Origin: Flectonema sp. DT1601
Lineage: Eukaryota
Reading direction: 5' to 3'
Assembly: GCA_964019425.1 (NCBI GenBank)
Contig: OZ025795.1
Coordinates: forward strand, 372,001 to 436,000
DNA: 64,000 bases
In this document: piece after piece, positions 6,720 through 64,000 of the stretch
Layout of the letters: every line of letters begins with the position of its first letter
Numbering within the stretch: position 1 is the stretch's first letter
Notes under the pieces: generated by a model
Database searches by the model: none
Seen by the model: only the letters and a program-made list of their open reading frames with translations
Told to the model about the DNA's origin: nothing
Position numbers and translations under genes: made by a program

Positions 6720-7007
6720 TGGTGTGTTTTTGTTGTGAAATCTGAAGAAGAAATGTTGCAATAACATAAACCAGAGTAAACTAAACCAAACCTGAGTCTA
6801 TTCCCAGTAATCTGTGCTACTCGTTTATCATCTCCTGGTTGAAGAATAGGAATTGAAGAAAACATAATTGAATTCAATAAGCGGTTTAGTTAAAGAAACA
6901 AACAAGCTGAGCGGAAGCTTAGCACATTCATTTTAAGGAGAACTTAGCAAGGCACGGCCCGCAAGTGGAATTACGTCACATCGATCTCGAAGTACTCTAA
7001 ATGGTCA

Positions 7008-12240: not shown

Positions 12241-12388
12241 TGTGAACTGCAGAAGAAGTTCGATAATAACGATAAAACTAATAACAGTACCACTCACGCC
12301 GAAGTAAATCATATGTACGAAGTAAGAGAAGTGGAATAAAATACACACAAAGTAATTTTGGTATTTTATGTTTTCTTAATCATCGGTG

Positions 12389-21778: not shown

Positions 21779-21809
<31 letters not shown>

Positions 21810-22006
21810 CTCTGCCTCTCTCTTAATTCTGTTCGTTTCTTTGAAACGAAAATTCATTTGAATATTATTCCTTGGTCAGCAACCATCATTGTCGCCCTTT
21901 GGGCCTGTTAAAAAAAATAAAAATAAAAAGAAAGTTTACATCGGGAATAGGGCAGGAGCCAAAAGCTCCCAGTCCGTTACTTCCCACTTTATCGAAATTC
22001 AGCTTT

Positions 22007-33565: not shown

Positions 33566-33830
33566 GAATTTCGATAAAGTGGGAAGTAACGGACTGGGAG
33601 CTTTTGGCTCCTGCCCTATTCCCGATGTAAACTTTCTTTTTATTTTTTATTTTTTTTTAACAGGCCCAAAGGGCGACAATGATGGTTGCTGACCAAGGAA
33701 TAATATTCAAATGAATTTTCGTTTCAAAGAAACGAACAGAATTAAGAGAGAGGCAGAGAAAAAAAAAAAAAAAAAAAAATGAAGAGGAAATAATCAAACA
33801 TGAAAAAAAAAAAAAAAAAAAAAAAAATAT
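33566..33830. mobile_element. Family A terminal region, copy 2 (inverted relative to copy 1)
   Basis: GAATTTCGATAAAGTGGGAAG... is the reverse complement of about 21715-22000. Confidence 0.9.
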
Positions 33831-39550: not shown

Positions 39551-41307
39551 AAAACAATGATAACATTGTTTATTCTTTTTTTTTTTTTTTTTAATTCTTT
39601 TTATTTATTTTTAAAAAGAAAAAAAATGGAAAATAGAAATTAGTCAACAAAGTCGAACGATAAAAAAAAACAATGATAACATTGTTTATTCTTTTTTTTT
39701 TTATTTTTTTTATATTCTTTTTTATTAATTTTGAAAAAAAAAACAATCAGTTTAGCGTCTTGACCAGGACGGAAAATAGAAAGTAATCGACATAGTCGAT
39801 CGATAAAAAAACAATGATAACATTGTTTATTCTTTTTTTTTTATTTTAAATTCTTTTTATTTATTTTTTAAAGAAAAAAAAACGGAAAATAGAAATTAGT
39901 CGACATAGTCGAACGATAAAAAAAAACAATGATAACATTGTTTATTCTTTTTTTTTTATTTTTTTTTTTTAATATTTTTTTTATTTTGAAAAAAAAAAAC
40001 AATCAGTTTAGCGTCTTGACCAGGACGGAAAATAGAAAGTAATCGACATAGTCGATCGATAAAAAAACAATGATAACATTGTTTATTCTTTTTTTTTTAT
40101 TTTTTATTCTTTTTATTTATTTTTTAAAGAAAAAAAACGGAAAATAGAAATTAGTCGACAAAGTCGAACGATAAAAAAAAACAATGATAACATTGTTTAT
40201 TCTTTTTTTTGTATTTTTTTATATTCTTTTTTATTAATTTTGAAAAAAAAACAATCAGTTTAGCGTCTTGACCAGGACGGAAAATAGAAAGTGATCGACA
40301 TAGTCGATCGATAAAAAAACAATGATAACATTGTTTATTCTTTTTTTTTTTTTATTTTTTTATTTTAAATTCTTTTTATTTATTTTTTAAAGAAAAAAAA
40401 AAACGGAAAATAGAAATTAGTCGACATAGTCGAACGATAAAAAAAAACAATGATAACATTGTTTATTCTTTTTTTTTTATTTTTTTTTTTTAATATTTTT
40501 TTATTTTGAAAAAAAAAAACAATCAGTTTAGCGTCTTGGCCAGGACGGAAAATAGAAAGTAATCGACATAGTCGATCGATAAAAAAAAACAATGATAACA
40601 TTGTTTATTCTTTTTTTTTTTATTTTAAATTCTTTTTATTTATTTTTCAAAGAAAAAAAAAACGGAAAATAGAAATTAGTCGACAAAGTCGAACGATAAA
40701 AAAAACAATGATAACATTGTTTAATCTTTTTTTTTGTACTTTTTTTATATTCTTTTTTATTAATTTTGAAAAAAAAAACAATCAGTTTAGCGTCTTGACC
40801 AGGACGGAAAATAGAAAGTGATCGACATAGTCGATCGATAAAAAAACAATGATAACATTGTTTATTCTTTTTTTTATTTTAAATTCTTTTTATTTATTTT
40901 TTAAAGAAAAAAAAACGGAAAATAGAAATTAGTCGACAAAGTCGAACGATAAAAAAAAACAATGATAACATTGTTTATTCTTTTTTTGTATTTTTTTATA
41001 TTCTTTTTTATTAGTTTTGAAAAAAAAACAATCAGTTTAGCGTCTTGACCAGGACGGAAAATAGAAAGTGATCGACATAGTCGATCGATAAAAAAACAAT
41101 GATAACATTGTTTATTCTTTTTTTGTATTTTTTTATATTCTTTTTTATTAATTTTGAAAAAAAAACAATCAGTTTAGCGTCTTGACCAGGACGGAAAATA
41201 GAAAGTGATCGACATAGTCGATCGATAAAAAAACAATGATAACATTGTTTATTCTTTTTTTTTTATTTTAAATTCTTTTTATTTATTTTTTAAAGAAAAA
41301 AAACGGA
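39551..41307. repeat. Family A satellite (reverse orientation)
   Basis: Reverse complement of the alpha/beta monomers. Confidence 0.95.
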
Positions 41308-42343
41308 AGTTGAATTTACAGGTGAGATTTGGACTGTTAGCTTTTGGCTAAGGCCCTCCCTGAAGAGCAAGAACAAAAAAACTACTCACACCTGAAGAAA
41401 ACATACACAAAGAACACACTGTAAGCTGTGTGTGTATTTTGTGTTTGTCACAACAGGAGAGAAAAGAAAGAATGTCAAGGTTGGTCACCTTGCCTATCAA
41501 CGCACAACATTGGTGGTCTCTACTAGACCCTGAGTGATCCCACTGGATCTCTCATCGTTCATAGTACCTATGTGAAGTTATAAAATCAAAGGTAAACTAT
41601 GAACTACAAATGACTTAGCCTGTTATTATAATGCCACAGGCAGGCCCTGCATTCAGCAACTATCCAGCAGTGCTTGGATGTCCTGATCTTCTTCTAAAAA
41701 AAAGAAAGAAAAACAAAACTGTAGCTGGGATCACTCAGGATCAACAGACTACCAATGCTACCTGTTGTACTTGCTCACTATGGGGGGTGATGCCAAACAC
41801 CCAGAAGTACTCAACTACTTTCCTTCTTGCTGCCCAGGAGTTTCTGACCAGAACTAATAGAAAATAAAAAGTAGATGGGAAACAATAAAAAGTAAAATGG
41901 ATATAACTGAAGTTATACAAGACAAATGAAGTAACAGACCAGAACAGAAAGAGGATTGTAATAGAAGATTACAAATAAAAAAATGCAAGTATCAACACAT
42001 AATCAAGATACACCAGCAGCTAACAAACAACATAAAATTGAAGATCAGTTGCCAGAGTATTTCAACCATGGTAGAATACTCGCCCCTCTGGCAGGGATTA
42101 TCCCAGACTTGTCCTTTAATCTAGTTGGACACCATGGTTCCCACCTTATGATTTTCTTGAAGAAAAAAAATAGAAGTCATAATGGTGCTTCCCTCTGGAA
42201 GGGTTGTAAGCCATGGTGTCCAACTAGATTAAAGGACAAGTCTGGGATAATCCCTGCCAGAGGGGCGAGTATTCTACCATGGTTGAAATACTCTGGCAAC
42301 TGATCTTCAATTTTATGTTGTTTGTTAGCTGCTGGTGTATCTA
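41308..42343. mobile_element. Family B partial copy with fold-back inversion at 42137/42138
   Basis: Starts at the B terminus (AGTTGAATT..); 42138-42343 is the reverse complement of a B internal segment. Confidence 0.8.
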
Positions 42344-42521
42344 GAATTCGATAGAGTGGGAAGTAACGGACTGGGAGCTTTTGGCTCCTGCCCTATTCCC
42401 GATGTAAACTTTCTTTTTATTTTTTTTTTTTTTTTTTAACAGGCCCAGAGGGCGACAATGACTGTTGCTGACCAAGGAATAATATTCAAATGAATTTTCG
42501 TTTCAAAGAAACGAACAGAAT

Positions 42522-44425
42522 GAGTTGAATTACCAGGTGAGATTTGGACAGTTAGCTTTTGGCTAAGGCCCTCCCTGAAGAGCAAGAACAGAAAAACTAC
42601 TCACACCTGAAGAAAACATACACAAAGAACACACTGTAAGCTGTGTGTGTATTTTGTGTTTGTCACAACAGGAGAGAAAAGAAAGAATGTCAAGGTTGGT
42701 CACCTTGCCTATCAACGCACAACATTGGTGGTCTCTACTAGACCCTGAGTGATCCCACTGGATCTCTCATCGTTCATAGTACCCTGTGTGAAGTTATAAA
42801 ATCAAAGGTAAACTATGAACTACAAATGACTTAGCCTGTTATTATAATGCCACAGGCAGGCCCTGCATTCAGCAACTATCCAGCAGTGCTTGGATGTCCT
42901 GATCTTCTTCTAAAAAAAAGAAAGAAAAACAAAACTGTAGCTGGGATCACTCAGGATCAACAGACTACCAATGCTACCTGTTGTACTTGCTCACTATGGG
43001 GGGTGATGCCAAACACCCAGAAGTACTTAACTACTTTCCTTCTTGCTGCCCAGGAGTTTCTGACCAGAACTAATAGAAAATAAAAAGTAGATGGGAAACA
43101 ATAAAAAGTAAAATGGATATAACTGAAGTTAAACAAGACAAATGAGGTAACAGACCAGAACAGAAAGAGGATTGTAATAGAAGATTACAAATAAAAAAAA
43201 ATGCAAGTATCAACACATAATCAAGATACACCAGCAGCTAACAAACAACATAAAATTGAAGATCAGTTGCCAGAGTATTTCAACCATGGTAGAATACTCG
43301 CCCCTCTGGCAGGGATTATCCCAGACTTGTCCTTTAATCTAGTTGGACACCATGGCTTACAACCCTTCCAGAGGGAAGCACCATTATGACTTCTATTTTT
43401 TTTCTTCAAGAAAATCATATGGTGGGAACAAAGAAAAATGCTAAGAGGAACCCCCTATTAACCTAAGACATCTAAACTGCAGCCCAGCCTATGCCCAATG
43501 CACTAACAGGTCATTCCCTCACACTCAGATCAAAAAATCAAAGTTCAGAGTGCATCTTAGCGTGAATGAGAGAATTTCCTCCCGCTTATTTTGAACAAAA
43601 GGGATAGGAGAAGGGATAGAAAACGAACATAAAAATAAGATTCTAAGTGAGAAACACTTAGCAGAAATACTTAGCAGCTTTTAAGGAGCTGAAAAGCAAA
43701 AAAAAAATCTAAGTGAGAAACACTTAGTAGAAACAATTTGTAGCTAATTAAGCTGAAAATAAAAAAATAAAAAATTTCTAAGTGAGAAATACTTAGCAAC
43801 TTTTAGAACAAATATTTCAGTAAATAACCTGTAATGATTAAACCATTACAGGTTTGATGTCAAAACTGACAAGGACTGAGTTGAATTACCAGGTGAGATT
43901 TGGACAGTTAGCTTTTGGCTAAGGCCCTCCCTGAAGAGCAAGAACAGAAAAACTACTCACACCTGAAGAAAACATACACAAAGAACACACTGTAAGCTGT
44001 GTGTGTATTTTGTGTTTGTCACAACAGGAGAGAAAAGAAAGAATGTCAAGGTTGGTCACCTTGCCTATCAACGCACAACATTGGTGGTCTCTACTAGACC
44101 CTGAGTGATCCCACTGGATCTCTCATCGTTCATAGTACCCTGTGTGAAGTTATAAAATCAAAGGTAAACTATGAACTACAAATGACTTAGCCTGTTATTA
44201 TAATGCCACAGGCAGGCCCTGCATTCAGCAACTATCCAGCCGTGCTTGGATGTCCTGATCTTCTTCTAAAAAAAAGAAAGAAAAACAAAACTGTAGCTGG
44301 GATCACTCAGGATCAACAGACTACCAATGCTACCTGTTGTACTTGCTCACTATGGGGGGTGATGCCAAACACCCAGAAGTACTTAACTACTTTCCTTCTT
44401 GCTGCCCAGGAGTTTCTGACCAGAA
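42522..44425. mobile_element. Family B insertion, about 1.4 tandem units of 1356 bp
   Basis: GAGTTGAATT terminus at 42522 and again at 43878. Confidence 0.85.
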
Positions 44426-44648
44426 GAGAGAGGCAGAGAAAAAAAAAAAAAAAAGAAAGAAAAGAAAAAAAAAATATGAAGAGGAAATAATCAAACATGA
44501 AAAAAATAAAAAAAAAAAAATAAAATATAAATAAAAAACGTTGTATGAAAAAGGAAAAAAAAGAAAAAAAAAAAAAAAAGACAAGAAAAGGAAAGAGAAA
44601 ATGAAAAGGTATAATATTATTGTGGGGATATGAGGATAGCAGGGAGAT

Positions 44649-44683
<35 letters not shown>

Positions 44684-44754
44684 TTATTATTTAAAAAAAA
44701 GGAAACAATCAGTTTAGCGTCTCGATCGGGACGGAAAATAGAAATTAATCGACA

Positions 44755-46390
44755 GGATAAGAGATTTGGGAGAGGAATAGGGGCAGTGAACTTTTGGTTC
44801 AGGCCCTTCCCATCGAACAGGACGAAGACTTCTAAAACCTGAGATGAACCAATTGAGTTGAAACAAACAAATAACAGAGACGCAACACATACCGGAACAT
44901 CATCGCAAGCAATGCTTCGGACCTCCGTCGACCTTCGTTCTTCCGGCGGCAAAGGGAAACAAGAAAGAACGGGCAATGAGACAAACCTGTTAGTTGGTGT
45001 TGTGTTGTTGTTAAAAACAAAAACATAAACGCCAGGAAGTTCGACAACGAAGACATCGACATCGATCGCTGCTCTGCAGATGTCCGGCGGGTGTTTGTCT
45101 ACACTGTGTTTATTGTTTGTTTTTTTCCCAAGGTTCAACCTTGGGAAGAGAAGTAAAAAATTCCGTCAATGTTGGCCTTCCTGTTCGAAGGTGCGCACCA
45201 ATGACGATAAATAGAGTGGGGGGAGAAAACCTTTGATCCAACTGGATCCCTTCACGAGCTGACATTGCCATGTGAAGTTAAATATTCTGGCGATGCCAGC
45301 TCAGGCGACTTAGCCTGCTTTTTTCTTTAAATAAAAAACAACAGGTGACGCTAAACACCCAGGGGATACAAACCAAACTTTCCCCCTGTTGCCCTGTTTG
45401 AAATAAATTAAAAAAAGAACAAGAAAACAGAATACAATACTCAGCAATCAGACTCGTTCACTCGCTTCGCCAGAGCCGTTCGAGCCGATGCTCATGTAAA
45501 GTTACCTGTTTTCTTTTAACAAATTAAATAAAATAAGATAAATAAAAATAAAGTAGCGCAACGGAGAGGAATACATAACACCTCGACTCTTGCGCTAGCA
45601 TCGCAAGGGGGGTACCCGGGAGATACAAACCAAACTTTCTCTGGAATACAATACCTAACAATCAGTGCGTTCACTGGCCTTAGGGCTGTTCGGACTTATG
45701 CTTTGGACTGTTCCCTTGCAGAAAAAAAAAGTAAAATAAACCAACTTTGGGACATTAGAAAAGCATAAAATAAAAGTTGCTACAACCAAAAGACAACTGC
45801 AAAAAAAAAAGGTTTTTGTAGGGGAGCTACAATGTAGCAATAATGTCACACAGTCATGTGGCAAGCTGGATAAGAGATTTGGGAGAGGAATAGGGGCAGT
45901 GAACTTTTGGTTCAGGCCCTTCCCATCGAACAGGACGAAGACTTCTAAAACCTGAGATGAACCAATTGAGTTGAAACAAACAAATAACAGAGACGCAACA
46001 CATACCGGAACATCATCGCAAGCAATGCTTCGGACCTCCGTCGACCTTCGTTCTTCCGGCGGCAAAGGGAAACAAGAAAGAACGGGCAATGAGACAAACC
46101 TGTTAGTTGGTGTTGTGTTGTTGTTAAAAACAAAAACATAAACGCCAGGAAGTTCGACAACGAAGACATCGACATCGATCGCTGCTCTGCAGATGTCCGG
46201 CGGGTGTTTGTCTACACTGTGTTTATTGTTTGTTTTTTTCCCAAGGTTCAACCTTGGGAAGAGAAGTAAAAAATTCCGTCAATGTTGGCCTTCCTGTTCG
46301 AAGGTGCGCACCAATGACGATAAATAGAGTGGGGGGAGAAAACCTTTGATCCAACTGGATCCCTTCACGAGCTGACATTGCCATGTGAAG
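44755..46390. mobile_element. Family C insertion: one 1113-bp deletion-variant unit plus a partial unit
   Basis: GGATAAGAG terminus at 44755 and 45868. Confidence 0.85.
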
Positions 46391-46429
46391 TAGTCGATCG
46401 ATAGAAAAAAAAACAATGATAACATTGTT

Positions 46430-46466
<37 letters not shown>

Positions 46467-46826
46467 CTTTTAATTATTTTAAAGAAAAAACAATCAGTTT
46501 AGCGTCTTGACCAGTACGGAAAATAGAAAGTGATCGACATAGTCGATCGATAAAAAAACAATGATAACATTGTTTATTCTTTTTTTTTATTTTAAATTCT
46601 TTTTATTTATTCTTTAAAGAAAAGAAAACGGAAAATAAAAATTAGTCGACAAAGTCGAACGATAAAAAAAAAACAATGATAACATTGTTTATTCTTTTTT
46701 TTTTTGTTTTTTTTTTATATTCTTTTTTATTAATTTTGAAAAAAAAAACAATCAGTTTAGCGTCTTGACCAGGACGGAAAATAGAAAGTAATCGACATAG
46801 TCGATCGATAAAAAAACAATGATAAC

Positions 46827-49013
46827 CATGGTGTCCAACTAAATTAAAGGACAAGTCTGGGATAATCCCTGCCAGAGGGGCGAGTATTCTACCATGGTTG
46901 AAATACTCTGGCAACTGATCTTCAATTTTATGTTGTTTGTTAGCTGCTGGTGTATCTAGATTATGTGTTGATACTTGCATTTTTTTATTTGTAATCTTCT
47001 ATTACAATTCTCTTTCTGTTCTGGTCTGTTACTTCATTTGTCTTGTTTAACTTCAGTTATATCCATTTTACTTTTTATTGTTTCCCATCTACTTTTTATT
47101 TTCTATTAGTTCTGGTCAGAAACTCCTGGGCAGCAAGAAGGAAAGCAGTTTAGTACTTCTGGGTGTTTGGCATCACCCCCCATAGTGAGCAAGTACAACA
47201 GGTAGCATTGGTAGTCTGTTGATCCTGAGTGATCCCAGCTACAGTTTTGTTTTTCTTTCTTTTTTTTAGAAGAAGATCAGGACATCCAAGCACTGCTGGA
47301 TAGTTGCTGAATGCAGGGCCTGCCTGTGGCATTATAATAACAGGCTAAGTCATTTGTAGTTCATAGTTTACCTTTGATTTTATAACTTCACATAGGGTAC
47401 TATGAACGATGAGAGATCCAGTGGGATCACTCAGGGTCTAGTAGAGACCACCAATGTTGTGCGTTGATAGGCAAGGTGACCAACCTTGACATTCTTTCTT
47501 TTCTCTCCTGTTGTGACAAACACAAAATACACACACAGCTTACAGTGTGTTCTTTGTGTATGTTTTCTTCAGGTGTGAGTAGTTTTTTTGTTCTTGCTCT
47601 TCAGGGAGGGCCTTAGCCAAAAGCTAACAGTCCAAATCTCACCTGGAAATTCAACTCAGTCCTTGTCAGTTTTGGCATCAAACTTGTAATGGTTTAATCA
47701 TTACAGGTTATTTACTGAAATATTTGTTCTAAAAGTTGCTAAGTATTTCTCACTTAGAAATTTTTTATTTTTTTATTTTCAGCTTAATTAGCTACAAATT
47801 GTTTCTACTAAGTGTTTCTCACTTAGTTTTTTTTTTTGCTTTTCAGCTCCTTAAAAGCTGCTAAGTGTTTCTGCTAAGTGTTTCTCACTTAGAATTTTAT
47901 TTTTATGTTCGTTTTCTATCCCTTCTCCTATCCCTTTTGTTCAAAATAAGCGGGAGGAAATTCTCTCATTCACGCTAAGATGCACTCTGAACTTTGATTT
48001 TTTGATCTGAGTGTGAGGGAATGACCTATTAGTGCATTGGGCATAGGCTGGGCTGCAGTTTAGATGTCTTAGGTGTTAATAGGGGGTTCCTCTTAGCATT
48101 TTTCTTTGTTCCCACCATATGATTTTCTTGAAGAAAAAAAATAGAAGTCATAATGGTGCTTCCCTCTGGAAGGGTTGTAAGCCATGGTGTCCAACTAAAT
48201 TAAAGGACAAGTCTGGGATAATCCCTGCCAGAGGGGCGAGTATTCTACCATGGTTGAAATACTCTGGCAACTGATCTTCAATTTTATGTTGTTTGTTAGC
48301 TGCTGGTGTATCTAGATTATGTGTTGATACTTGCATTTTTTTATTTGTAATCTTCTATTACAATTCTCTTTCTGTTCTGGTCTGTTACTTCATTTGTCTT
48401 GTTTAACTTCAGTTATATCCATTTTACTTTTTATTGTTTCCCATCTACTTTTTATTTTCTATTAGTTCTGGTCAGAAACTCCTGGGCAGCAAGAAGGAAA
48501 GCAGTTTAGTACTTCTGGGTGTTTGGCATCACCCCCCATAGTGAGCAAGTACAACAGGTAGCATTGGTAGTCTGTTGATCCTGAGTGATCCCAGCTACAG
48601 TTTTGTTTTTCTTTCTTTTTTTTAGAAGAAGATCAGGACATCCAAGCACTGCTGGATAGTTGCTGAATGCAGGGCCTGCCTGTGGCATTATAATAACAGG
48701 CTAAGTCATTTGTAGTTCATAGTTTACCTTTGATTTTATAACTTCACATAGGGTACTATGAACGATGAGAGATCCAGTGGGATCACTCAGGGTCTAGTAG
48801 AGACCACCAATGTTGTGCGTTGATAGGCAAGGTGACCAACCTTGACATTCTTTCTTTTCTCTCCTGTTGTGACAAACACAAAATACACACACAGCTTACA
48901 GTGTGTTCTTTGTGTATGTTTTCTTCAGGTGTGAGTAGTTTTTTTGTTCTTGCTCTTCAGGGAGGGCCTTAGCCAAAAGCTAACAGTCCAAATCTCACCT
49001 GGAAATTCAACTC
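46827..49013. mobile_element. Family B insertion, reverse orientation, about 1.6 units
   Basis: AATTCAACTC terminus at 47657 and 49013. Confidence 0.85.
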
Positions 49014-50546
49014 ATTGTTTAATCTTTTTTTTTAAATTCTTTTTATTTATTTTTTAAAGAAAAAAAACGGAAAATAGAAATTAGTCGACAAAGTCGAACG
49101 ATAAAAAAACAATGATAACATTGTTTATTCTTTTTTTTTATTTTTTTTATATTTTTTTTTAATTAATTTTGAAAAAAAAACAATCAGTTTAGCGTCTTGA
49201 CCAGGACGGAAAATAGAAAGTGATCGACATAGTCGATCGATAAAAAAACAATGATAACATTGTTTATTCTTTTTTTTTATTTTAAATTCTTTTTATTTAT
49301 TTTTTAAAGAAAAAAAAACGGAAAATAGAAATTAGTCGACAAAGTCGAACGATAAAAAAAACAATGATAACATTGTTTATTCTTTTTTTTATTTTTTTTT
49401 TTATATTCTTTTTTATTAATTTTGAAAAAAAAAAAAAAAAAACAACCAGTTTAGCGTCTTGACCAGGACGGAAAATAGAAAGTAATCGACATAGTCGATC
49501 GATAAAAAAACAATGATAACATTGTTTATTCTTTTTTTTTTTAAATTCTTTTTATTTATTTTTTAAAGGAAAAAAAAAAACGGAAAATAGAAATTAGTCG
49601 ACAAAGTCGAACGATAAAAAAAAAAAAACAATGATAACATTGTTTATTCTTTTTTTTTTTTTTTAATTCTTTTTATTTATTAAAAAAAAAAAACAATCAG
49701 TTTAGCGTCTTGACCAGGACGGAAAATAGAAAGTGATCGACATAGTCGATCGATAAAAAAACAATGATAACATTGTTTATTCTTTTTTTTTATTTTAAAT
49801 TCTTTTTATTTATTTTTTAAAGAAAAAAAAAAACGGAAAATAGAAATTAGTCGACAAAGTCGAACGATAAAAAAAAAAAAACAATGATAACATTGTTTAT
49901 TCTTTTTTTTTTTATTTTTTTATATTCTTTTTTATTAATTTTGAAAAAAAAACAATCAGTTTAGCGTCTTGACCAGGACGGAAAATAGAAAGTGATCGAC
50001 ATAGTCGATCGATAAAAAAACAATGATAACATTGTTTATTCTTTTTTTTTATTTTAAATTCTTTTTATTTATTCTTTAAAGAAAAGAAACGGAAAATAGA
50101 AATTAGTCGACAAAGTCGAACGATAAAAAAAACAATGATAACATTGTTTATTCTTTTTTTTATTTTTTTTTTATATTCTTTTTTATTAATTTTGAAAAAA
50201 AAAAAAAAAAAAAAAAAATCAGTTTAGCGTCTTGACCAGGACGGAAAATAGAAAGTAATCGACATAGTCGATCGATAAAAAAACAATGATAACATTGTTT
50301 ATTCTTTTTTTTTTTTAAATTCTTTTTATTTATTTTTTAAAGGAAAAAAAAAACGGAAAATAGAAATTAGTCGACAAAGTCGAACGATAAAAAAACAATG
50401 ATAACATTGTTTATTTTTTTTTTTTTTTTTTTTTATTTCTTTTTATTTATTAAAAAAAAAAACAATCAGTTTAGCGTCTTGACCAGGACGGAAAATAGAA
50501 AGTGATCGACATAGTCGATCGATAAAAAAACAATGATAACATTGTT

Positions 50547-53500
50547 GGATAAGAGATTTGGGAGAGGAATAGGGGCAGTGAACTTTTGGTTCAGGCCCTT
50601 CCCATCGAACAGGACGAAGACTTCTAAAACCTGAGATGAACCAATTGAGTTGAAACAAACAAATAACAGAGACGCAACACATACCGGAACATCATCGCAA
50701 GCAATGCTTCGGACCTCCGTCGACCTTCGTTCTTCCGGCGGCAAAGGGAAACAAGAAAGAACGGGCAATGAGACAAACCTGTTAGTTGGTGTTGTGTTGT
50801 TGTTAAAAACAAAAACATAAACGCCAGGAAGTTCGACAACGAAGACATCGACATCGATCGCTGCTCTGCAGATGTCCGGCGGGTGTTTGTCTACACTGTG
50901 TTTATTGTTTGTTTTTTTCCCAAGGTTCAACCTTGGGAAGAGAAGTAAAAAATTCCGTCAATGTTGGCCTTCCTGTTCGAAGGTGCGCACCAATGACGAT
51001 AAATAGAGTGGGGGGAGAAAACCTTTGATCCAACTGGATCCCTTCACGAGCTGACATTGCCATGTGAAGTTAAATATTCTGGCGATGCCAGCTCAGGCGA
51101 CTTAGCCTGCTTTTTTCTTTAAATAAAAAAAATAAAAAGATACCAACAGGTGGGGTGATGGGTTGCGCCACTGCAATCCAGTCACAAAAAGAAACAAAGG
51201 TAATCTCAAGGGTTCTCGACCCTTGGCTCTCCCTGCGCAAGCATCGCATGGAGGGTGACGCTAAGCACCCGGGGGGTACGAAACAAACTTTCCCCCTGCT
51301 GTCCTGTTTGAAATAAAAAAAAAAAAACAAAGGGATAGAAGTAAACAGAATACGTTACACCTCAACAGGTGACGCTAAACACCCAGGGGATACAAACCAA
51401 ACTTTCCCCCTGTTGCCCTGTTTGAAATAAATTAAAAAAAGAACAAGAAAACAGAATACAATACTCAGCAATCAGACTCGTTCACTCGCTTCGCCAGAGC
51501 CGTTCGAGCCGATGCTCATGTAAAGTTACCTGTTTTCTTTTAACAAATTAAATAAAATAAGATAAATAAAAATAAAAATAAAGTAGCGCAACGGAGAGGA
51601 ATACATAACACCTCGACTCTTGCGCTAGCATCGCAAGGGGGGTACCCGGGAGATACAAACCAAACTTTCTCTGGAATACAGTACCTAACAATCAGTGCGT
51701 TCACTGGCCTTAGGGCTGTTCGAACTTATGCTTTGGACTGTTCCCTTGCAGAAAAAAAAAGTAAAATAAACCAACTTTGGGACATTAGAAAAGCATAAAA
51801 TAAAAGTTGCTACAACCAAAAGACAACTGCAAAAAAAAAGGTTTTTGTAGGGGAGCTACAATGTAGCAATAATGTCACACAGTCATGTGGCAAGCTGGAT
51901 AAGAGATTTGGGAGAGGAATAGGGGCAGTGAACTTTTGGTTCAGGCCCTTCCCATCGAACAGGACGAAGACTTCTAAAACCTGAGATGAACCAATTGAGT
52001 TGAAACAAACAAATAACAGAGACGCAACACATACCGGAACATCATCGCAAGCAATGCTTCGGACCTCCGTCGACCTTCGTTCTTCCGGCGGCAAAGGGAA
52101 ACAAGAAAGAACGGGCAATGAGACAAACCTGTTAGTTGGTGTTGTGTTGTTGTTAAAAACAAAAACATAAACGCCAGGAAGTTCGACAACGAAGACATCG
52201 ACATCGATCGCTGCTCTGCAGATGTCCGGCGGGTGTTTGTCTACACTGTGTTTATTGTTTGTTTTTTTCCCAAGGTTCAACCTTGGGAAGAGAAGTAAAA
52301 AATTCCGTCAATGTTGGCCTTCCTGTTCGAAGGTGCGCACCAATGACGATAAATAGAGTGGGGGGAGAAAACCTTTGATCCAACTGGATCCCTTCACGAG
52401 CTGACATTGCCATGTGAAGTTAAATATTCTGGCGATGCCAGCTCAGGCGACTTAGCCTGCTTTTTTCTTTAAATAAAAAAAATAAAAAGATACCAACAGG
52501 TGGGGTGATGGGTTGCGCCACTGCAATCCAGTCACAAAAAGAAACAAAGGTAATCTCAAGGGTTCTCGACCCTTGGCTCTCCCTGCGCAAGCATCGCATG
52601 GAGGGTGACGCTAAGCACCCGGGGGGTACGAAACAAACTTTCCCCCTGCTGTCCTGTTTGAAATAAAAAAAAAAAAACAAAGGGATAGAAGTAAACAGAA
52701 TACGTTACACCTCAACAGGTGACGCTAAACACCCAGGGGATACAAACCAAACTTTCCCCCTGTTGCCCTGTTTGAAATAAATTAAAAAAAGAACAAGAAA
52801 ACAGAATACAATACTCAGCAATCAGACTCGTTCACTCGCTTCGCCAGAGCCGTTCGAGCCGATGCTCATGTAAAGTTACCTGTTTTCTTTTAACAAATTA
52901 AATAAAATAAGATAAATAAAAATAAAAATAAAGTAGCGCAACGGAGAGGAATACATAACACCTCGACTCTTGCGCTAGCATCGCAAGGGGGGTACCCGGG
53001 AGATACAAACCAAACTTTCTCTGGAATACAGTACCTAACAATCAGTGCGTTCACTGGCCTTAGGGCTGTTCGAACTTATGCTTTGGACTGTTCCCTTGCA
53101 GAAAAAAAAAGTAAAATAAACCAACTTTGGGACATTAGAAAAGCATAAAATAAAAGTTGCTACAACCAAAAGACAACTGCAAAAAAAAAGGTTTTTGTAG
53201 GGGAGCTACAATGTAGCAATAATGTCACACAGTCATGTGGCAAGCTGGATAAGAGATTTGGGAGAGGAATAGGGGCAGTGAACTTTTGGTTCAGGCCCTT
53301 CCCATCGAACAGGACGAAGACTTCTAAAACCTGAGATGAACCAATTGAGTTGAAACAAACAAATAACAGAGACGCAACACATACCGGAACATCATCGCAA
53401 GCAATGCTTCGGACCTCCGTCGACCTTCGTTCTTCCGGCGGCAAAGGGAAACAAGAAAGAACGGGCAATGAGACAAACCTGTTAGTTGGTGTTGTGTTGT

Positions 53501-53769
53501 TGTTAAAAACAAAAACATAAACGCCAGGAAGTTCGACAACGAAGACATCGACATCGATCGCTGCTCTGCAGATGTCCGGCGGGTGTTTGTCTACACTGTG
53601 TTTATTGTTTGTTTTTTTCCCAAGGTTCAACCTTGGGAAGAGAAGTAAAAAATTCCGTCAATGTTGGCCTTCCTGTTCGAAGGTGCGCACCAATGACGAT
53701 AAATAGAGTGGGGGGAGAAAACCTTTGATCCAACTGGATCCCTTCACGAGCTGACATTGCCATGTGAAG
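50547..53769. mobile_element. Family C tandem array, about 2.4 units of 1350 bp
   Basis: Unit starts at 50547, 51897 and 53247. Confidence 0.88.
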
Positions 53770-53808
53770 TAGTCGATCGATAGAAAAAAAAACAATGATA
53801 ACATTGTT

Positions 53809-53845
<37 letters not shown>

Positions 53846-56800
53846 CTTTTAATTATTTTAAAGAAAAAACAATCAGTTTAGCGTCTTGACCAGTACGGAA
53901 AATAGAAAGTGATCGACATAGTCGATCGATAAAAAAACAATGATAACATTGTTTATTCTTTTTTTTTATTTTAAATTCTTTTTATTTATTCTTTAAAGAA
54001 AAGAAAACGGAAAATAAAAATTAGTCGACAAAGTCGAACGATAAAAAAAAAACAATGATAACATTGTTTATTCTTTTTTTTTTTGTTTTTTTTTTATATT
54101 CTTTTTTATTAATTTTGAAAAAAAAAACAATCAGTTTAGCGTCTTGACCAGGACGGAAAATAGAAAGTAATCGACATAGTCGATCGATAAAAAAACAATG
54201 ATAACCATGGTGTCCAACTAAATTAAAGGACAAGTCTGGGATAATCCCTGCCAGAGGGGCGAGTATTCTACCATGGTTGAAATACTCTGGCAACTGATCT
54301 TCAATTTTATGTTGTTTGTTAGCTGCTGGTGTATCTAGATTATGTGTTGATACTTGCATTTTTTTATTTGTAATCTTCTATTACAATTCTCTTTCTGTTC
54401 TGGTCTGTTACTTCATTTGTCTTGTTTAACTTCAGTTATATCCATTTTACTTTTTATTGTTTCCCATCTACTTTTTATTTTCTATTAGTTCTGGTCAGAA
54501 ACTCCTGGGCAGCAAGAAGGAAAGCAGTTTAGTACTTCTGGGTGTTTGGCATCACCCCCCATAGTGAGCAAGTACAACAGGTAGCATTGGTAGTCTGTTG
54601 ATCCTGAGTGATCCCAGCTACAGTTTTGTTTTTCTTTCTTTTTTTTAGAAGAAGATCAGGACATCCAAGCACTGCTGGATAGTTGCTGAATGCAGGGCCT
54701 GCCTGTGGCATTATAATAACAGGCTAAGTCATTTGTAGTTCATAGTTTACCTTTGATTTTATAACTTCACATAGGGTACTATGAACGATGAGAGATCCAG
54801 TGGGATCACTCAGGGTCTAGTAGAGACCACCAATGTTGTGCGTTGATAGGCAAGGTGACCAACCTTGACATTCTTTCTTTTCTCTCCTGTTGTGACAAAC
54901 ACAAAATACACACACAGCTTACAGTGTGTTCTTTGTGTATGTTTTCTTCAGGTGTGAGTAGTTTTTTTGTTCTTGCTCTTCAGGGAGGGCCTTAGCCAAA
55001 AGCTAACAGTCCAAATCTCACCTGGAAATTCAACTCAGTCCTTGTCAGTTTTGGCATCAAACTTGTAATGGTTTAATCATTACAGGTTATTTACTGAAAT
55101 ATTTGTTCTAAAAGTTGCTAAGTATTTCTCACTTAGAAATTTTTTATTTTTTTATTTTCAGCTTAATTAGCTACAAATTGTTTCTACTAAGTGTTTCTCA
55201 CTTAGTTTTTTTTTTTGCTTTTCAGCTCCTTAAAAGCTGCTAAGTGTTTCTGCTAAGTGTTTCTCACTTAGAATTTTATTTTTATGTTCGTTTTCTATCC
55301 CTTCTCCTATCCCTTTTGTTCAAAATAAGCGGGAGGAAATTCTCTCATTCACGCTAAGATGCACTCTGAACTTTGATTTTTTGATCTGAGTGTGAGGGAA
55401 TGACCTATTAGTGCATTGGGCATAGGCTGGGCTGCAGTTTAGATGTCTTAGGTGTTAATAGGGGGTTCCTCTTAGCATTTTTCTTTGTTCCCACCATATG
55501 ATTTTCTTGAAGAAAAAAAATAGAAGTCATAATGGTGCTTCCCTCTGGAAGGGTTGTAAGCCATGGTGTCCAACTAAATTAAAGGACAAGTCTGGGATAA
55601 TCCCTGCCAGAGGGGCGAGTATTCTACCATGGTTGAAATACTCTGGCAACTGATCTTCAATTTTATGTTGTTTGTTAGCTGCTGGTGTATCTAGATTATG
55701 TGTTGATACTTGCATTTTTTTATTTGTAATCTTCTATTACAATTCTCTTTCTGTTCTGGTCTGTTACTTCATTTGTCTTGTTTAACTTCAGTTATATCCA
55801 TTTTACTTTTTATTGTTTCCCATCTACTTTTTATTTTCTATTAGTTCTGGTCAGAAACTCCTGGGCAGCAAGAAGGAAAGCAGTTTAGTACTTCTGGGTG
55901 TTTGGCATCACCCCCCATAGTGAGCAAGTACAACAGGTAGCATTGGTAGTCTGTTGATCCTGAGTGATCCCAGCTACAGTTTTGTTTTTCTTTCTTTTTT
56001 TTAGAAGAAGATCAGGACATCCAAGCACTGCTGGATAGTTGCTGAATGCAGGGCCTGCCTGTGGCATTATAATAACAGGCTAAGTCATTTGTAGTTCATA
56101 GTTTACCTTTGATTTTATAACTTCACATAGGGTACTATGAACGATGAGAGATCCAGTGGGATCACTCAGGGTCTAGTAGAGACCACCAATGTTGTGCGTT
56201 GATAGGCAAGGTGACCAACCTTGACATTCTTTCTTTTCTCTCCTGTTGTGACAAACACAAAATACACACACAGCTTACAGTGTGTTCTTTGTGTATGTTT
56301 TCTTCAGGTGTGAGTAGTTTTTTTGTTCTTGCTCTTCAGGGAGGGCCTTAGCCAAAAGCTAACAGTCCAAATCTCACCTGGAAATTCAACTCATTGTTTA
56401 ATCTTTTTTTTTAAATTCTTTTTATTTATTTTTTAAAGAAAAAAAACGGAAAATAGAAATTAGTCGACAAAGTCGAACGATAAAAAAACAATGATAACAT
56501 TGTTTATTCTTTTTTTTTATTTTTTTTATATTTTTTTTTAATTAATTTTGAAAAAAAAACAATCAGTTTAGCGTCTTGACCAGGACGGAAAATAGAAAGT
56601 GATCGACATAGTCGATCGATAAAAAAACAATGATAACATTGTTTATTCTTTTTTTTTATTTTAAATTCTTTTTATTTATTTTTTAAAGAAAAAAAAACGG
56701 AAAATAGAAATTAGTCGACAAAGTCGAACGATAAAAAAAACAATGATAACATTGTTTATTCTTTTTTTTATTTTTTTTTTTATATTCTTTTTTATTAATT

Positions 56801-58247
56801 TTGAAAAAAAAAAAAAAAAAACAACCAGTTTAGCGTCTTGACCAGGACGGAAAATAGAAAGTAATCGACATAGTCGATCGATAAAAAAACAATGATAACA
56901 TTGTTTATTCTTTTTTTTTTTAAATTCTTTTTATTTATTTTTTAAAGGAAAAAAAAAAACGGAAAATAGAAATTAGTCGACAAAGTCGAACGATAAAAAA
57001 AAAAAAACAATGATAACATTGTTTATTCTTTTTTTTTTTTTTTTAATTCTTTTTATTTATTAAAAAAAAAAAACAATCAGTTTAGCGTCTTGACCAGGAC
57101 GGAAAATAGAAAGTGATCGACATAGTCGATCGATAAAAAAACAATGATAACATTGTTTATTCTTTTTTTTTATTTTAAATTCTTTTTATTTATTTTTTAA
57201 AGAAAAAAAAAAACGGAAAATAGAAATTAGTCGACAAAGTCGAACGATAAAAAAAAAAAAACAATGATAACATTGTTTATTCTTTTTTTTTTTATTTTTT
57301 TATATTCTTTTTTATTAATTTTGAAAAAAAAACAATCAGTTTAGCGTCTTGACCAGGACGGAAAATAGAAAGTGATCGACATAGTCGATCGATAAAAAAA
57401 CAATGATAACATTGTTTATTCTTTTTTTTTATTTTAAATTCTTTTTATTTATTCTTTAAAGAAAAGAAACGGAAAATAGAAATTAGTCGACAAAGTCGAA
57501 CGATAAAAAAAACAATGATAACATTGTTTATTCTTTTTTTTATTTTTTTTTTATATTCTTTTTTATTAATTTTGAAAAAAAAAAAAAAAAAAAAACAATC
57601 AGTTTAGCGTCTTGACCAGGACGGAAAATAGAAAGTAATCGACATAGTCGATCGATAAAAAAACAATGATAACATTGTTTATTCTTTTTTTTTTTTAAAT
57701 TCTTTTTATTTATTTTTTAAAGGAAAAAAAAAACGGAAAATAGAAATTAGTCGACAAAGTCGAACGATAAAAAAACAATGATAACATTGTTTATTTTTTT
57801 TTTTTTTTTTTTTTATTTCTTTTTATTTATTAAAAAAAAAAACAATCAGTTTAGCGTCTTGACCAGGACGGAAAATAGAAAGTGATCGACATAGTCGATC
57901 GATAAAAAAACAATGATAACATTGTTGGATAAGAGATTTGGGAGAGGAATAGGGGCAGTGAACTTTTGGTTCAGGCCCTTCCCATCGAACAGGACGAAGA
58001 CTTCTAAAACCTGAGATGAACCAATTGAGTTGAAACAAACAAATAACAGAGACGCAACACATACCGGAACATCATCGCAAGCAATGCTTCGGACCTCCGT
58101 CGACCTTCGTTCTTCCGGCGGCAAAGGGAAACAAGAAAGAACGGGCAATGAGACAAACCTGTTAGTTGGTGTTGTGTTGTTGTTAAAAACAAAAACATAA
58201 ACGCCAGGAAGTTCGACAACGAAGACATCGACATCGATCGCTGCTCT
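52714..58247. repeat. Second copy of a duplicated block, offset 7379-7380 bp from about 45338-50867 (C-A-B-A-C)
   Basis: Identical junctions and ORFs recur at +7379/+7380 (46642/54021, 50443/57823); includes B 54206-56392. Confidence 0.92.
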
Positions 58248-58324
58248 ACTATGTCGATTACTTTCTATTTTCCGTCCTGGTCAAGACGCTAAACTGATTG
58301 TTTTTTCTTTAAAAAAAAAAAAAG

Positions 58325-58361
<37 letters not shown>

Positions 58362-59135
58362 ATAAACAATGTTATCATTGTTTTTTTTTTATCGATCGAC
58401 TATGTCGATCACTTTCTATTTTCCGTCCTGGTCAAGACGCTAAACTGATTGTTTTTTTTTTCAAAATTAATAAAAAAGAATATAAAAAAAAAAATAAAAA
58501 AAAAAGAATAAACAATGTTATCATTGTTTTTTTTTTTATCGTTCGACTTTGTTGACTAATTTCTATTTTCCGTTTTTTTTCTTTTTAAAATAAAAAGAAT
58601 TTAAAAAAAAAAAAAAAAAAGAGTAAACAATGTTATCATTGTTTTTTTTATCGATCGACTATGTCGATTACTTTCTATTTTCCGTCCTGGTCAAGACGCT
58701 AAACTGATTGTTTTTTTTTCAAAATTAATAAAAAAGAATATAAAAAAAAACAAAAAAAAAAAGAATAAACAATGTTATCATTGTTTTTTTTTATCGTTCG
58801 ACTTTGTCGACTAATTTTTATTTTCCGTTTTTTTTCTTTAAAAATAAATAAAAAGAATTTAAAAAAAAAAAAAAAAAAAGAATAAACAATGTTATCATTG
58901 TTTTTTTATCGATCGACTATGTCGATCACTTTCTATTTTCCGTCCTGGTCAAGACGCTAAACTGATTGTTTTTTCTTTAAAATAATAAAAAGGATTAAAA
59001 AAAAAAAAAAAAAAAAAAAAGAATAAACAATGTTATCATTGTTTTTTATCGATCGACTATGTCGATCACTTTCTATTTTCCGTCCTGGTCAAGACGCTAA
59101 ACTGATTGTTTTTTCTTTAAAAAATAATTAAAAGG

Positions 59136-59166
<31 letters not shown>

Positions 59167-59558
59167 ATAAACAATGTTATCATTGTTTTTTTATCGATCG
59201 ACTATGTCGATCACTTTCAATTTTCCGTCCTGGTCAGGACGCTAAACTGATTGTTTTTTCTTTAAAAATAAATAAAAAGAATAAAAAAAAAGAAAAAAAA
59301 AAGGAATAAACAATGTTATCATTGTTTTTTTTTTATCGATCGACTATGTCGATTACTTTCTATTTTCCGTCCTGGTCAGGACGCTAAACTGATTGTTTTT
59401 TCTTTAAAAATAAATAAAAAGAATAAAAAAAAAAGAAAAAAAAAAGGAATAAACAATGTTATCATTGTTTTTTATCGATCGACTATGTCGATCACTTTCT
59501 ATTTTCCGTCCTGGTCAAGACGCTAAACTGATTGTTTTTTCTTTAAAATAATTAAAAG

Positions 59559-59591
<33 letters not shown>

Positions 59592-59844
59592 ATAAACAAT
59601 GTTATCATTGTCTTTTTTCTATCGATCGACTATGTGGATCACTTTCAATTTTCCGTCCTGGTCAGGACGCTAAACTGATTGTTTTTTCTTTAAAAATAAA
59701 TAAAAAGAATAAAAAAAAAAAAAAAAAAAAGGAATAAACAATGTTATCATTGTTTTTTTTCTATCGATCGACTATGTCGATTAATTTCTATTTTCCGTCC
59801 TGATCGAGACGCTAAACTGATTGTTTCCTTTTTTTAAATAATAA

Positions 59845-59882
<38 letters not shown>

Positions 59883-62800
59883 ATCTCCCTGCTATCCTCA
59901 TATCCCCACAATAATATTATACCTTTTCATTTTCTCTTTCCTTTTCTGGTCTTTTTTTTTTCTTTTTTTCCTTTTTCATACAACGTTTTTTATTTATATT
60001 TTATTTTTTTTTTTTTTTTTCATGTTTGATTATTTCCTCTTCATATTTTTTTTCTATTCTTTCTTTTTTTTTTTTTTTTTTTTTTTCTCTACCTCTCTCT
60101 TAATTCTGTTCGTTTCTTTGAAACGAAAATTCATTTGAATATTATTCCTTGGTCAGCAACCATCATTGTCGCCCTTTGGGCCTGTTAAAAAAAAAAAAAA
60201 AATAAAAAGAAAGTTTACGTCGGGAATAGGGCAGGAGCCAAAAGCTCCCAGTCCGTTACTTCCCACTTATCGAAATTCAGATGTCCGGCGGGTGTTTGTC
60301 TACACTGTGTTTATTGTTTGTTTTTTTCCCAAGGTTCAACCTTGGGAAGAGAAGTAAAAAATTCCGTCAATGTTGGCCTTCCTGTTCGAAGGTGCGCACC
60401 AATGACGATAAATAGAGTGGGGGGAGAAAACCTTTGATCCAACTGGATCCCTTCACGAGCTGACATTGCCATGTGAAGTTAAATATTCTGGCGATGCCAG
60501 CTCAGGCGACTTAGCCTGCTTTTTTCTTTAAATAAAAAAAATAAAAAGATACCAACAGGTGGGGTGATGGGTTGCGCCACTGCAATCCAGTCACAAAAAG
60601 AAACAAAGGTAATCTCAAGGGTTCTCGACCCTTGGCTCTCCCTGCGCAAGCATCGCATGGAGGGTGACGCTAAGCACCCGGGGGGTACGAAACAAACTTT
60701 CCCCCTGCTGTCCTGTTTGAAATAAAAAAAAAAAACAAAGGGATAGAAGTAAACAGAATACGTTACACCTCAACAGGTGACGCTAAACACCCAGGGGATA
60801 CAAACCAAACTTTCCCCCTGTTGCCCTGTTTGAAATAAATTAAAAAAAGAACAAGAAAACAGAATACAATACTCAGCAATCAGACTCGTTCACTCGCTTC
60901 GCCAGAGCCGTTCGAGCCGATGCTCATGTAAAGTTACCTGTTTTCTTTTAACAAATTAAATAAAATAAGATAAATAAAAATAAAAATAAAGTAGCGCAAC
61001 GGAGAGGAATACATAACACCTCGACTCTTGCGCTAGCATCGCAAGGGGGGTACCCGGGAGATACAAACCAAACTTTCTCTGGAATACAGTACCTAACAAT
61101 CAGTGCGTTCACTGGCCTTAGGGCTGTTCGAACTTATGCTTTGGACTGTTCCCTTGCAGAAAAAAAAAGTAAAATAAACCAACTTTGGGACATTAGAAAA
61201 GCATAAAATAAAAGTTGCTACAACCAAAAGACAACTGCAAAAAAAAAGGTTTTTGTAGGGGAGCTACAATGTAGCAATAATGTCACACAGTCATGTGGCA
61301 AGCTGGATAAGAGATTTGGGAGAGGAATAGGGGCAGTGAACTTTTGGTTCAGGCCCTTCCCATCGAACAGGACGAAGACTTCTAAAACCTGAGATGAACC
61401 AATTGAGTTGAAACAAACAAATAACAGAGACGCAACACATACCGGAACATCATCGCAAGCAATGCTTCGGACCTCCGTCGACCTTCGTTCTTCCGGCGGC
61501 AAAGGGAAACAAGAAAGAACGGGCAATGAGACAAACCTGTTAGTTGGTGTTGTGTTGTTGTTAAAAACAAAAACATAAACGCCAGGAAGTTCGACAACGA
61601 AGACATCGACATCGATCGCTGCTCTGCAGATGTCCGGCGGGTGTTTGTCTACACTGTGTTTATTGTTTGTTTTTTTCCCAAGGTTCAACCTTGGGAAGAG
61701 AAGTAAAAAATTCCGTCAATGTTGGCCTTCCTGTTCGAAGGTGCGCACCAATGACGATAAATAGAGTGGGGGGAGAAAACCTTTGATCCAACTGGATCCC
61801 TTCACGAGCTGACATTGCCATGTGAAGTTAAATATTCTGGCGATGCCAGCTCAGGCGACTTAGCCTGCTTTTTTCTTTAAATAAAAAAAATAAAAAGATA
61901 CCAACAGGTGGGGTGATGGGTTGCGCCACTGCAATCCAGTCACAAAAAGAAACAAAGGTAATCTCAAGGGTTCTCGACCCTTGGCTCTCCCTGCGCAAGC
62001 ATCGCATGGAGGGTGACGCTAAGCACCCGGGGGGTACGAAACAAACTTTCCCCCTGCTGTCCTGTTTGAAATAAAAAAAAAAAAACAAAGGGATAGAAGT
62101 AAACAGAATACGTTACACCTCAACAGGTGACGCTAAACACCCAGGGGATACAAACCAAACTTTCCCCCTGTTGCCCTGTTTGAAATAAATTAAAAAAAGA
62201 ACAAGAAAACAGAATACAATACTCAGCAATCAGACTCGTTCACTCGCTTCGCCAGAGCCGTTCGAGCCGATGCTCATGTAAAGTTACCTGTTTTCTTTTA
62301 ACAAATTAAATAAAATAAGATAAATAAAAATAAAAATAAAGTAGCGCAACGGAGAGGAATACATAACACCTCGACTCTTGCGCTAGCATCGCAAGGGGGG
62401 TACCCGGGAGATACAAACCAAACTTTCTCTGGAATACAGTACCTAACAATCAGTGCGTTCACTGGCCTTAGGGCTGTTCGAACTTATGCTTTGGACTGTT
62501 CCCTTGCAGAAAAAAAAAGTAAAATAAACCAACTTTGGGACATTAGAAAAGCATAAAATAAAAGTTGCTACAACCAAAAGACAACTGCAAAAAAAAAGGT
62601 TTTTGTAGGGGAGCTACAATGTAGCAATAATGTCACACAGTCATGTGGCAAGCTGGATAAGAGATTTGGGAGAGGAATAGGGGCAGTGAACTTTTGGTTC
62701 AGGCCCTTCCCATCGAACAGGACGAAGACTTCTAAAACCTGAGATGAACCAATTGAGTTGAAACAAACAAATAACAGAGACGCAACACATACCGGAACAT

Positions 62801-64000
62801 CATCGCAAGCAATGCTTCGGACCTCCGTCGACCTTCGTTCTTCCGGCGGCAAAGGGAAACAAGAAAGAACGGGCAATGAGACAAACCTGTTAGTTGGTGT
62901 TGTGTTGTTGTTAAAAACAAAAACATAAACGCCAGGAAGTTCGACAACGAAGACATCGACATCGATCGCTGCTCTGCAGATGTCCGGCGGGTGTTTGTCT
63001 ACACTGTGTTTATTGTTTGTTTTTTTCCCAAGGTTCAACCTTGGGAAGAGAAGTAAAAAATTCCGTCAATGTTGGCCTTCCTGTTCGAAGGTGCGCACCA
63101 ATGACGATAAATAGAGTGGGGGGAGAAAACCTTTGATCCAACTGGATCCCTTCACGAGCTGACATTGCCATGTGAAGTTAAATATTCTGGCGATGCCAGC
63201 TCAGGCGACTTAGCCTGCTTTTTTCTTTAAATAAAAAAAATAAAAAGATACCAACAGGTGGGGTGATGGGTTGCGCCACTGCAATCCAGTCACAAAAAGA
63301 AACAAAGGTAATCTCAAGGGTTCTCGACCCTTGGCTCTCCCTGCGCAAGCATCGCATGGAGGGTGACGCTAAGCACCCGGGGGGTACGAAACAAACTTTC
63401 CCCCTGCTGTCCTGTTTGAAATAAAAAAAAAAAACAAAGGGATAGAAGTAAACAGAATACGTTACACCTCAACAGGTGACGCTAAACACCCAGGGGATAC
63501 AAACCAAACTTTCCCCCTGTTGCCCTGTTTGAAATAAATTAAAAAAAGAACAAGAAAACAGAATACAATACTCAGCAATCAGACTCGTTCACTCGCTTCG
63601 CCAGAGCCGTTCGAGCCGATGCTCATGTAAAGTTACCTGTTTTCTTTTAACAAATTAAATAAAATAAGATAAATAAAAATAAAAATAAAGTAGCGCAACG
63701 GAGAGGAATACATAACACCTCGACTCTTGCGCTAGCATCGCAAGGGGGGTACCCGGGAGATACAAACCAAACTTTCTCTGGAATACAGTACCTAACAATC
63801 AGTGCGTTCACTGGCCTTAGGGCTGTTCGAACTTATGCTTTGGACTGTTCCCTTGCAGAAAAAAAAAGTAAAATAAACCAACTTTGGGACATTAGAAAAG
63901 CATAAAATAAAAGTTGCTACAACCAAAAGACAACTGCAAAAAAAAAGGTTTTTGTAGGGGAGCTACAATGTAGCAATAATGTCACACAGTCATGTGGCAA
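57927..64000. mobile_element. Family C tandem array continuing past the window end
   Basis: Unit starts at 57927 (interrupted by A copy 4), 61305 and 62655. Confidence 0.88.
58248..60278. mobile_element. Family A copy 4 (truncated in the satellite, intact terminus) inserted in a C unit
   Basis: C sequence CTGCTCT|GC|AGATGTCC is interrupted: CTGCTCT ends at 58247 and AGATGTCC resumes at 60279. Confidence 0.88.

Follow-up and report, generated by a model that had tools for sequence, protein, structure and literature searches.

Penelope-like elements are recognised by 5′ truncation, partial tandems and adjacent inverted truncated copies (Craig et al. 2021, PMC8557442). In the same account, partial tandems together with an inverted copy set these elements apart from long interspersed nuclear elements (LINEs), a 30-40-bp tail is often, not always, present, non-autonomous Chlamys elements form multicopy head-to-tail insertions with 3′-end similarity to their partner, and hammerhead ribozymes are missing in Naiad and in most Chlamys elements. 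For Adineta vaga, a Penelope insertion with a microhomologous 5′ junction and no target-site duplication (TSD) has been described, together with palindromes at head-to-head inverted joints (PMC3846280). Here we analyse three repeat families, A, B and C, nested in one another in a stretch of 64,000 nucleotides (nt) of contig OZ025795.1, filed under Flectonema sp. DT1601 (positions 372,001 to 436,000; "the window" hereafter), and we find that they appear to behave like non-autonomous Penelope-like elements, without filing them as members of that group.

All three families are non-coding. In A, the fixed end is followed by roughly 500 bp of A/T-rich body and then by a satellite of ~115/140-bp subunits; this fixed end is seen at 22000 (-), 33566, 42344 and 60278 (-) in the window. 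B and C are units of 1356 and 1350 bp, respectively, that hold short open frames only, two of which were tested against Pfam without a match. The three families have in common a stem-loop that keeps its loop CTTTTGG while its stem bases are altered. In every family the stem starts at a distance of 24-26 nt from the fixed end, and the stem-loop occupies that place in 9 independent window junctions. Its consensus has 19 exact matches in the window, against 0 in 100 shuffles. Beyond the stem-loop, B and C have just short words in common, an internal motif of about 90 nt apart. The fixed ends read GAATT, GAGTT and GGATA on one strand and TTC, CTC and TCC at the end of the other, no poly(A) or simple-repeat tail was seen at them, and the preference for a T just before the fixed end (6/10 junctions, P ~0.07) is not significant. 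The stem-loop pattern has 1 viral, 21 metagenome and 0 prokaryote-genome matches in public collections (with a stricter pattern for prokaryotes), and we take the 22 outside loci as chance, since none resembles the window by blastn. A possible old, diverged relative of A lies between genes at 8430-8693 (-); it begins GAATTTC, carries a GAGC/GCTC hairpin with another loop and has an A-like T-rich stretch, its score being the highest in a scan of 1-12 kb and barely over background (50 vs 43).

Four nested insertions without TSD and with 0-2 nt of target lost had been proposed in a sequence-only reading of this DNA, and comparison with intact window copies bears out all four, at 1904, 1636, 2187 and 2031 bp (Table 1); the uninterrupted target motifs occur 3, 42, 76 and 7 times within the window. 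When direct repeats were compared with ±3 nt of slack, the longest across any junction was 2-4 nt and a TSD was absent in 4/4. Far-end microhomology amounts to 0-2 nt at the four junctions, and two of the four insertions are imprecise, having lost target bases. The targets lie between A and T, between T and G and, twice, at sites with lost bases, with no dinucleotide in common. Empty sites can be rebuilt for the four junctions, as had been claimed, with the qualification that three come from paralogous repeat copies and that A in C alone has its own pre-insertion duplicate as empty site, at ~50868. The reciprocal nesting of A with C also stands, and A and B are nested in each other likewise. 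The size range given earlier, 1.6-2.2 kb, suits these four inserts (1636-2187 bp), but not the C arrays of 3.2 and >4 kb nor the A copy at 22000, which spans 5.7 kb gross. Several insertion points (44755, 46826, 50546 and 58247) fall within or next to short palindromes or small hairpins of the repeat that hosts them (for instance ATCGAC-ATA-GTCGAT and CTGCAG); the satellite is itself rich in such hairpins.

Table 1. Features of the repeat nest, in window coordinates; slashes mark junctions.
Feature	Position	Strand	Details
B insertion in A	42522-44425	+	AGAAT/(T lost)/AAGAGAG; 2-nt far-end microhomology (AA); stem-loop 42546-42571
C insertion in A	44755-46390	+	CGACA/TAGTC; precise; 1 nt shared; stem-loop 44781-44806
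B insertion in A	46827-49013	-	precise; 1 nt shared; far end at unit position 832
A insertion in C	58248-60278	-	GC lost (or C, if G shared); 0 nt shared; far end inside A satellite
Host copy of A	42344-50546	+	interrupted by B, C, B; far end outside what the window shows
Terminal stem-loop of A	42368-42393	-	24 nt from fixed end; likely folds on the strand ending there
A copy	33566-41308	+	fixed end joins 31-bp satellite; holds tandem array of element with terminal inverted repeats
A copy	16257-22000	-	fixed end joins other side of 31-bp block; far end in A satellite; two elements with terminal inverted repeats
B copy	41308-42137	+	unit positions 2-832; fixed end joined to A satellite
Inverted B piece	42137-42345	-	unit 906 down to 698; interrupted by A copy at 42344
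Structured motif in B and C	42751-42838	-	two hairpins, long stem, possible loop pairings
C array, 2.4 units	50547-53769	+	likely hybrid from unequal recombination between two C insertions
Near-exact duplicate of 45802-50867	53181-58247	+	2 differences; holds second copy of B insertion
C array, at least 3 identical units	57927-64000	+	interrupted by A; runs off window

The sequence-only reading missed the partial-tandem and inverted structure of these inserts. All three complete B or C insertions are partial tandems, of 1.40, 1.61 and ~1.39 units, made up of 1356 + 548, 1356 + 831 and 1113 (with a 237-bp deletion) + 523 bp; this does not hold for A taken over its full length. At 41308-42345, the far ends of a direct and an inverted piece of B meet at the palindrome ACCATGGT, the inverted piece reaching at least to position 698 and overlapping the direct one by at least 134 nt. 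The far end, earlier called arbitrary, does vary between copies, but it is not always so, since two independent B copies (41308 and 46827, which show 3 differences over the first 540 positions) both stop at unit position 832. Such a coincidence has a chance of ~0.2% for two given ends within 1 nt, uncorrected for the number of pairs, and position 832 may represent either a start of transcripts or a strong stop. Near it, at 48172-48250, a 9-bp pairing with two G.U pairs could form between two CCATGG-containing stretches of the putative RNA strand; a hepatitis delta virus (HDV)-like fold does not fit it. The segment 45802-50867, about 5 kb long, recurs ~7.38 kb downstream with 2 differences as a recent duplicate, which accounts for the B insertion at 54206-56392 and for the junctions 53769 and 57927, none of them an independent event; most simply, this duplicate would have arisen by unequal recombination between two C insertions.

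The stretch or parts of it were found in at least 16 runs from 11 studies, all as contigs, and none of the runs listed with it is RNA. Comparison with 42300-46420 took in 4 of the 16 runs, again as contigs only, and A proved uninterrupted at the B site in one of these runs and at the C site in three. Contigs of other samples also show B and C as head-to-tail units, and they provide two new junctions of the A fixed end, the first with the 31-bp satellite and the second with C at 45651, by which the fixed end recurs at new sites and A enters C at a second one. The four junctions of the window are bridged by no piece among those listed, which are contigs of other samples only; this is no evidence of absence, since contigs lose rare forms and the matches listed are incomplete.

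These features most resemble non-autonomous Chlamys Penelope-like elements of the MRC1 type from Chlamydomonas, which are non-coding, occur as partial tandems and head-to-tail multicopy insertions and have one variable end (PMC8557442). Chlamys elements also show similarity confined to one end and no hammerhead, and inverted truncated copies are known in the group. They differ in that the four sites described here have no microsatellite target and no 30-40-bp tail, in the diplonemid-like euglenozoan host, and in the presence of three families with one defined terminal stem-loop. The Penelope elements of Adineta vaga likewise form partial tandems and a head-to-head inverted copy with a palindrome, and some of their insertions are TSD-less with microhomology; unlike A, B and C, they code for reverse transcriptase (RT) as well as a GIY-YIG nuclease, and TSDs of 8-10 bp and a tail occur in several of them (PMC3846280). 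Non-LTR (lacking long terminal repeats, LTRs) retrozymes are similar as non-coding tandem units thought to ride Penelope-like enzymes (bioRxiv 10.64898/2026.07.22.740005), but they are defined by a type I hammerhead per unit, and none was found in A, B or C, so we rejected this assignment.

Two mechanisms had been left side by side in the sequence-only reading, one-ended rolling-circle transposition and reverse transcription that is primed at the stem-loop end and leaves no TSD; the second is now better supported, and rolling circle of the Helitron type fails on its end and target rules. We hold with fair confidence that A, B and C are non-autonomous retroelements inserted by target-primed reverse transcription from the stem-loop end, the enzyme being likely Penelope-like, and with good confidence that insertion was templated by RNA, whichever RT was involved. 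A fixed end opposite a variable end with microhomology is the ordinary signature of non-LTR retrotransposition. The traits expected of Penelope-like elements that we observe are the partial tandem (pseudo-LTR) in B and C, the variable far end with microhomology, which we infer to be the RNA 5′ end, and the inverted copy with its palindrome, a trait common in the group though not universal. The RNA would be the strand that ends at the fixed end, carrying the stem-loop near its 3′ end as a recognition signal for the enzyme, and a 3′-OH of the target would prime copying at the fixed end. On a multimeric or circular transcript, copying would then run on across the unit boundary and come to a halt at variable, sometimes preferred, positions. 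Near-blunt second-strand cleavage followed by end-joining would leave no TSD and cause small losses, an inverted copy could result from two copying events, one per side of the break, and the nest may later have been enlarged by unequal recombination between C copies.

Several observations weigh against this proposal. No partner enzyme was recovered by stem-loop pattern scans or by Pfam on window frames, and no RT occurs among the 7 window frames scanned with Pfam. The Diplonema papillatum paper names LINE-1, SLACS, R2/jockey, TATE, MULE and Helitron open reading frames (ORFs), and Penelope goes unmentioned in main-text passages and 7 supplementary files, so that the lineage has a recorded Helitron enzyme but no recorded Penelope one. 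The window shows a single inverted truncated copy beside a variable end, none of the 9 independent fixed ends in the window has a 30-40-bp tail, and no hammerhead was found by Rfam or by pattern scans run without a positive control. A partial tandem is likewise formed by an element with terminal inverted repeats (TIRs) that lies in this nest, so such tandems are not unique to A, B and C here. The strand assignment is affected as well. In 10 stems, there are 8 cases in which a G.U pair is possible only on the strand whose end is the fixed end and 2 in which only the opposite strand allows one, which lends weak support to a stem-loop lying near an RNA 3′ end. The support is weak because the stems were chosen by eye while reading the favoured strand, the outer-stem wobble is common to A and B and may be one event, and a competing stem in C favours the opposite strand; moreover, G.T pairs also form in single-stranded DNA. 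Membership in the Penelope family is unproven, since no partner enzyme, known ribozyme or raw read was found.

An HUH enzyme (IS91-, Helitron2- or Replitron-like) could instead have moved the repeats by one-ended rolling-circle transposition, with the stem-loop end as the nicking origin and strand displacement overrunning the unit end to halt at variable points. This would account for the absence of TSDs in 4/4 insertions, the hairpin at the terminus and the head-to-tail arrays of the window and of other samples. The same absence of TSDs, terminal hairpin, internal satellites and head-to-tail joints are found in Helitrons (Helraiser, PMC4778049) and in Helentron/HINE/DINE-1 elements (PMC4067079); the layout of A recalls satellite-carrying non-autonomous Helentrons (PMC4067079), and Helitron-like ORFs are reported from D. 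papillatum. Replitron-1, from a group with protist hosts, offers one exact and one fuzzy end, the latter drawn from downstream of the parent (PMC10288648), but its short terminal direct repeats, short fuzzy end and variable TSDs differ from the overrun of 0.5-0.8 kb and the lack of TSD seen here. Helraiser inserts precisely at AT, has TC/CTAG ends and can bypass its hairpin end (PMC4778049), the hairpin end being dispensable there and fixed in A, B and C. A canonical Helitron was rejected, since the 5′-TC/CTRR-3′ ends are missing, an A/T target occurs in 1/4 insertions and 2/4 lose target bases. Helentron-type elements carry inverted repeats near their ends and leave the TT target that they enter unchanged (PMC4067079); a Helentron, HINE or Helitron2 assignment, which calls for precise TT (or TC) insertion, was rejected as well, with precise insertion between two Ts in 0/4 and no subterminal inverted match of at least 9 nt in A or B, against one of 9 nt in C, the test on A being limited to the ends seen, beyond which its true second end may lie. 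The far-end-to-far-end inverted copy would also be unexpected, and we consider rolling circle unlikely. TATE/VIPER elements, which use a tyrosine recombinase and have split direct repeats and two defined ends, do not match either, since far ends differ among A, B and C copies.

RNA templating with a conventional non-LTR partner (R2-, SLACS/CRE- or LINE-like) making a near-blunt cut, with A, B and C as passengers resembling short interspersed nuclear elements and sharing a 3′ stem-loop, would equally suit a fixed end and a variable end with microhomology, which any target-primed reverse transcription may leave, and such RTs are abundant in D. papillatum. Against it, the fixed end has no poly(A) or simple-repeat tail, and the overlap of at least 134 nt between the inverted and direct B pieces exceeds simple twin priming. 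Partial tandems with an inverted copy are also said to separate Penelope-like elements from LINEs (PMC8557442). CRE elements bear poly(A) tails and TSDs (PMC12278014), and we rejected CRE/SLACS and ingi non-LTR elements because both features are missing at 4/4 insertions. We regard this variant as doubtful, and as still less credible the possibility that no dedicated enzyme exists at all, break repair having inserted pieces of arrays or circles, or the long identical arrays being partly assembly artefacts. Microhomology and small losses would fit such repair, the identical units of C and of the TIR element and the near-exact 7.4-kb repeat would fit an artefact, and the junctions are seen in assembled sequence; yet repair would leave neither end fixed, whereas three otherwise dissimilar families keep the stem-loop 24-26 nt from the fixed end in 9 window and 2 other-sample junctions, and this explanation is very improbable.

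The internal motif of B and C spans ~90 nt, a long stem standing between two hairpins. This stem keeps its pairing although its sequence is not the same in the two families, and the loop words are conserved; two such colinear 10-mers arise in 3/1000 shuffles. The C insertion at 44755 has its far end in a conserved loop of this motif, a single case, and viral contigs hold 2 matches to the motif, both without the flanking stem. Rfam returned no ribozyme or other gathering-level match on the window or on single B and C units, a MIR5048 match being merely the long inverted repeat of B. As for the hammerhead, C has no CUGANGA on either strand and B has two, neither with a stem II. Pattern scans for HDV-like and twister ribozymes, non-circular orders included, found none, again with no positive control. 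A twister was rejected for the motif, which has a similar UAA and 4-nt stem and fails on the core blocks: the three core blocks and two pseudoknots in any of six orders gave 0 matches on both strands of 5 sequences, with blocks taken from the supplement of PMC10085705, no positive control and B scanned minus its last 9 nt. It is conceivable, and in our estimate rather unlikely, that the motif acts as a novel RNA, self-cleaving or end-defining, by which multimeric transcripts are cut, within an undescribed Penelope-type system of diplonemids where one small 3′ stem-loop licenses unrelated non-coding RNAs; such cutting would explain the end of the C insertion in the conserved loop.

Single-copy genes point to a diplonemid-like euglenozoan as the source of the window, since the methyltransferase gene at 4674-5420 has Diplonema papillatum as its best named relative, at 70% identity. 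A guanidinoacetate methyltransferase-like gene forms a tandem duplicate there (4415-5538 and 5700-6836, 96.7% identity). Beyond 12.4 kb the window is nearly all repeat. The TIR-ended element mentioned above occupies 33831-39550 as 3.3 identical 1712-bp units with ~25-bp terminal inverted repeats, head to tail without spacer; each unit has a 223-aa cysteine-rich frame with a weak zinc-finger match and no clear Atlas match, and the array stops part-way through a unit and replaces part of its host A copy. The A satellite also contains a piggyBac-like element at 19409-21139, which is flanked by TTAA on each side and keeps inverted ends and the remains of a DDE_Tnp_1_7 transposase, and a non-coding element of ~770 bp with terminal inverted repeats at 17610-18378. 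A 31-bp G/T-rich satellite forms two blocks (12387-16009, 116 copies; 22007-33565, 375 copies), the larger with an A fixed end on either side, both outward, and A joins this satellite in another sample too. A further segment (16010-16256) separates the 31-bp satellite from an A copy's far end. Its part 16018-16080 recurs with a different left flank in 1/4 runs compared, the remainder having been skipped as repeat, and that flank ends in a GTTGAATT-like word resembling the B fixed end; the segment may be the true second end of A, or a fourth element whose far end meets that of A.

The junction pattern itself is already known, and the surprise is moderate. Among the matches listed in the literature searched, which leaves out most subscription papers and took in no protein-level search, none reports Penelope-like elements from diplonemids. 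According to PMC8557442, the way in which Penelope-like enzymes select their RNA, and the reason for their partial tandems and inverted copies, have yet to be resolved. Three families that have hardly anything in common except one stem-loop, set at a constant distance from the junction, provide a concrete, mutable candidate for the recognition signal. Should the partner be an HUH enzyme, the nest would represent a eukaryotic one-ended rolling-circle system with unusual rules; a confirmed Penelope-like partner would extend that group to Euglenozoa.

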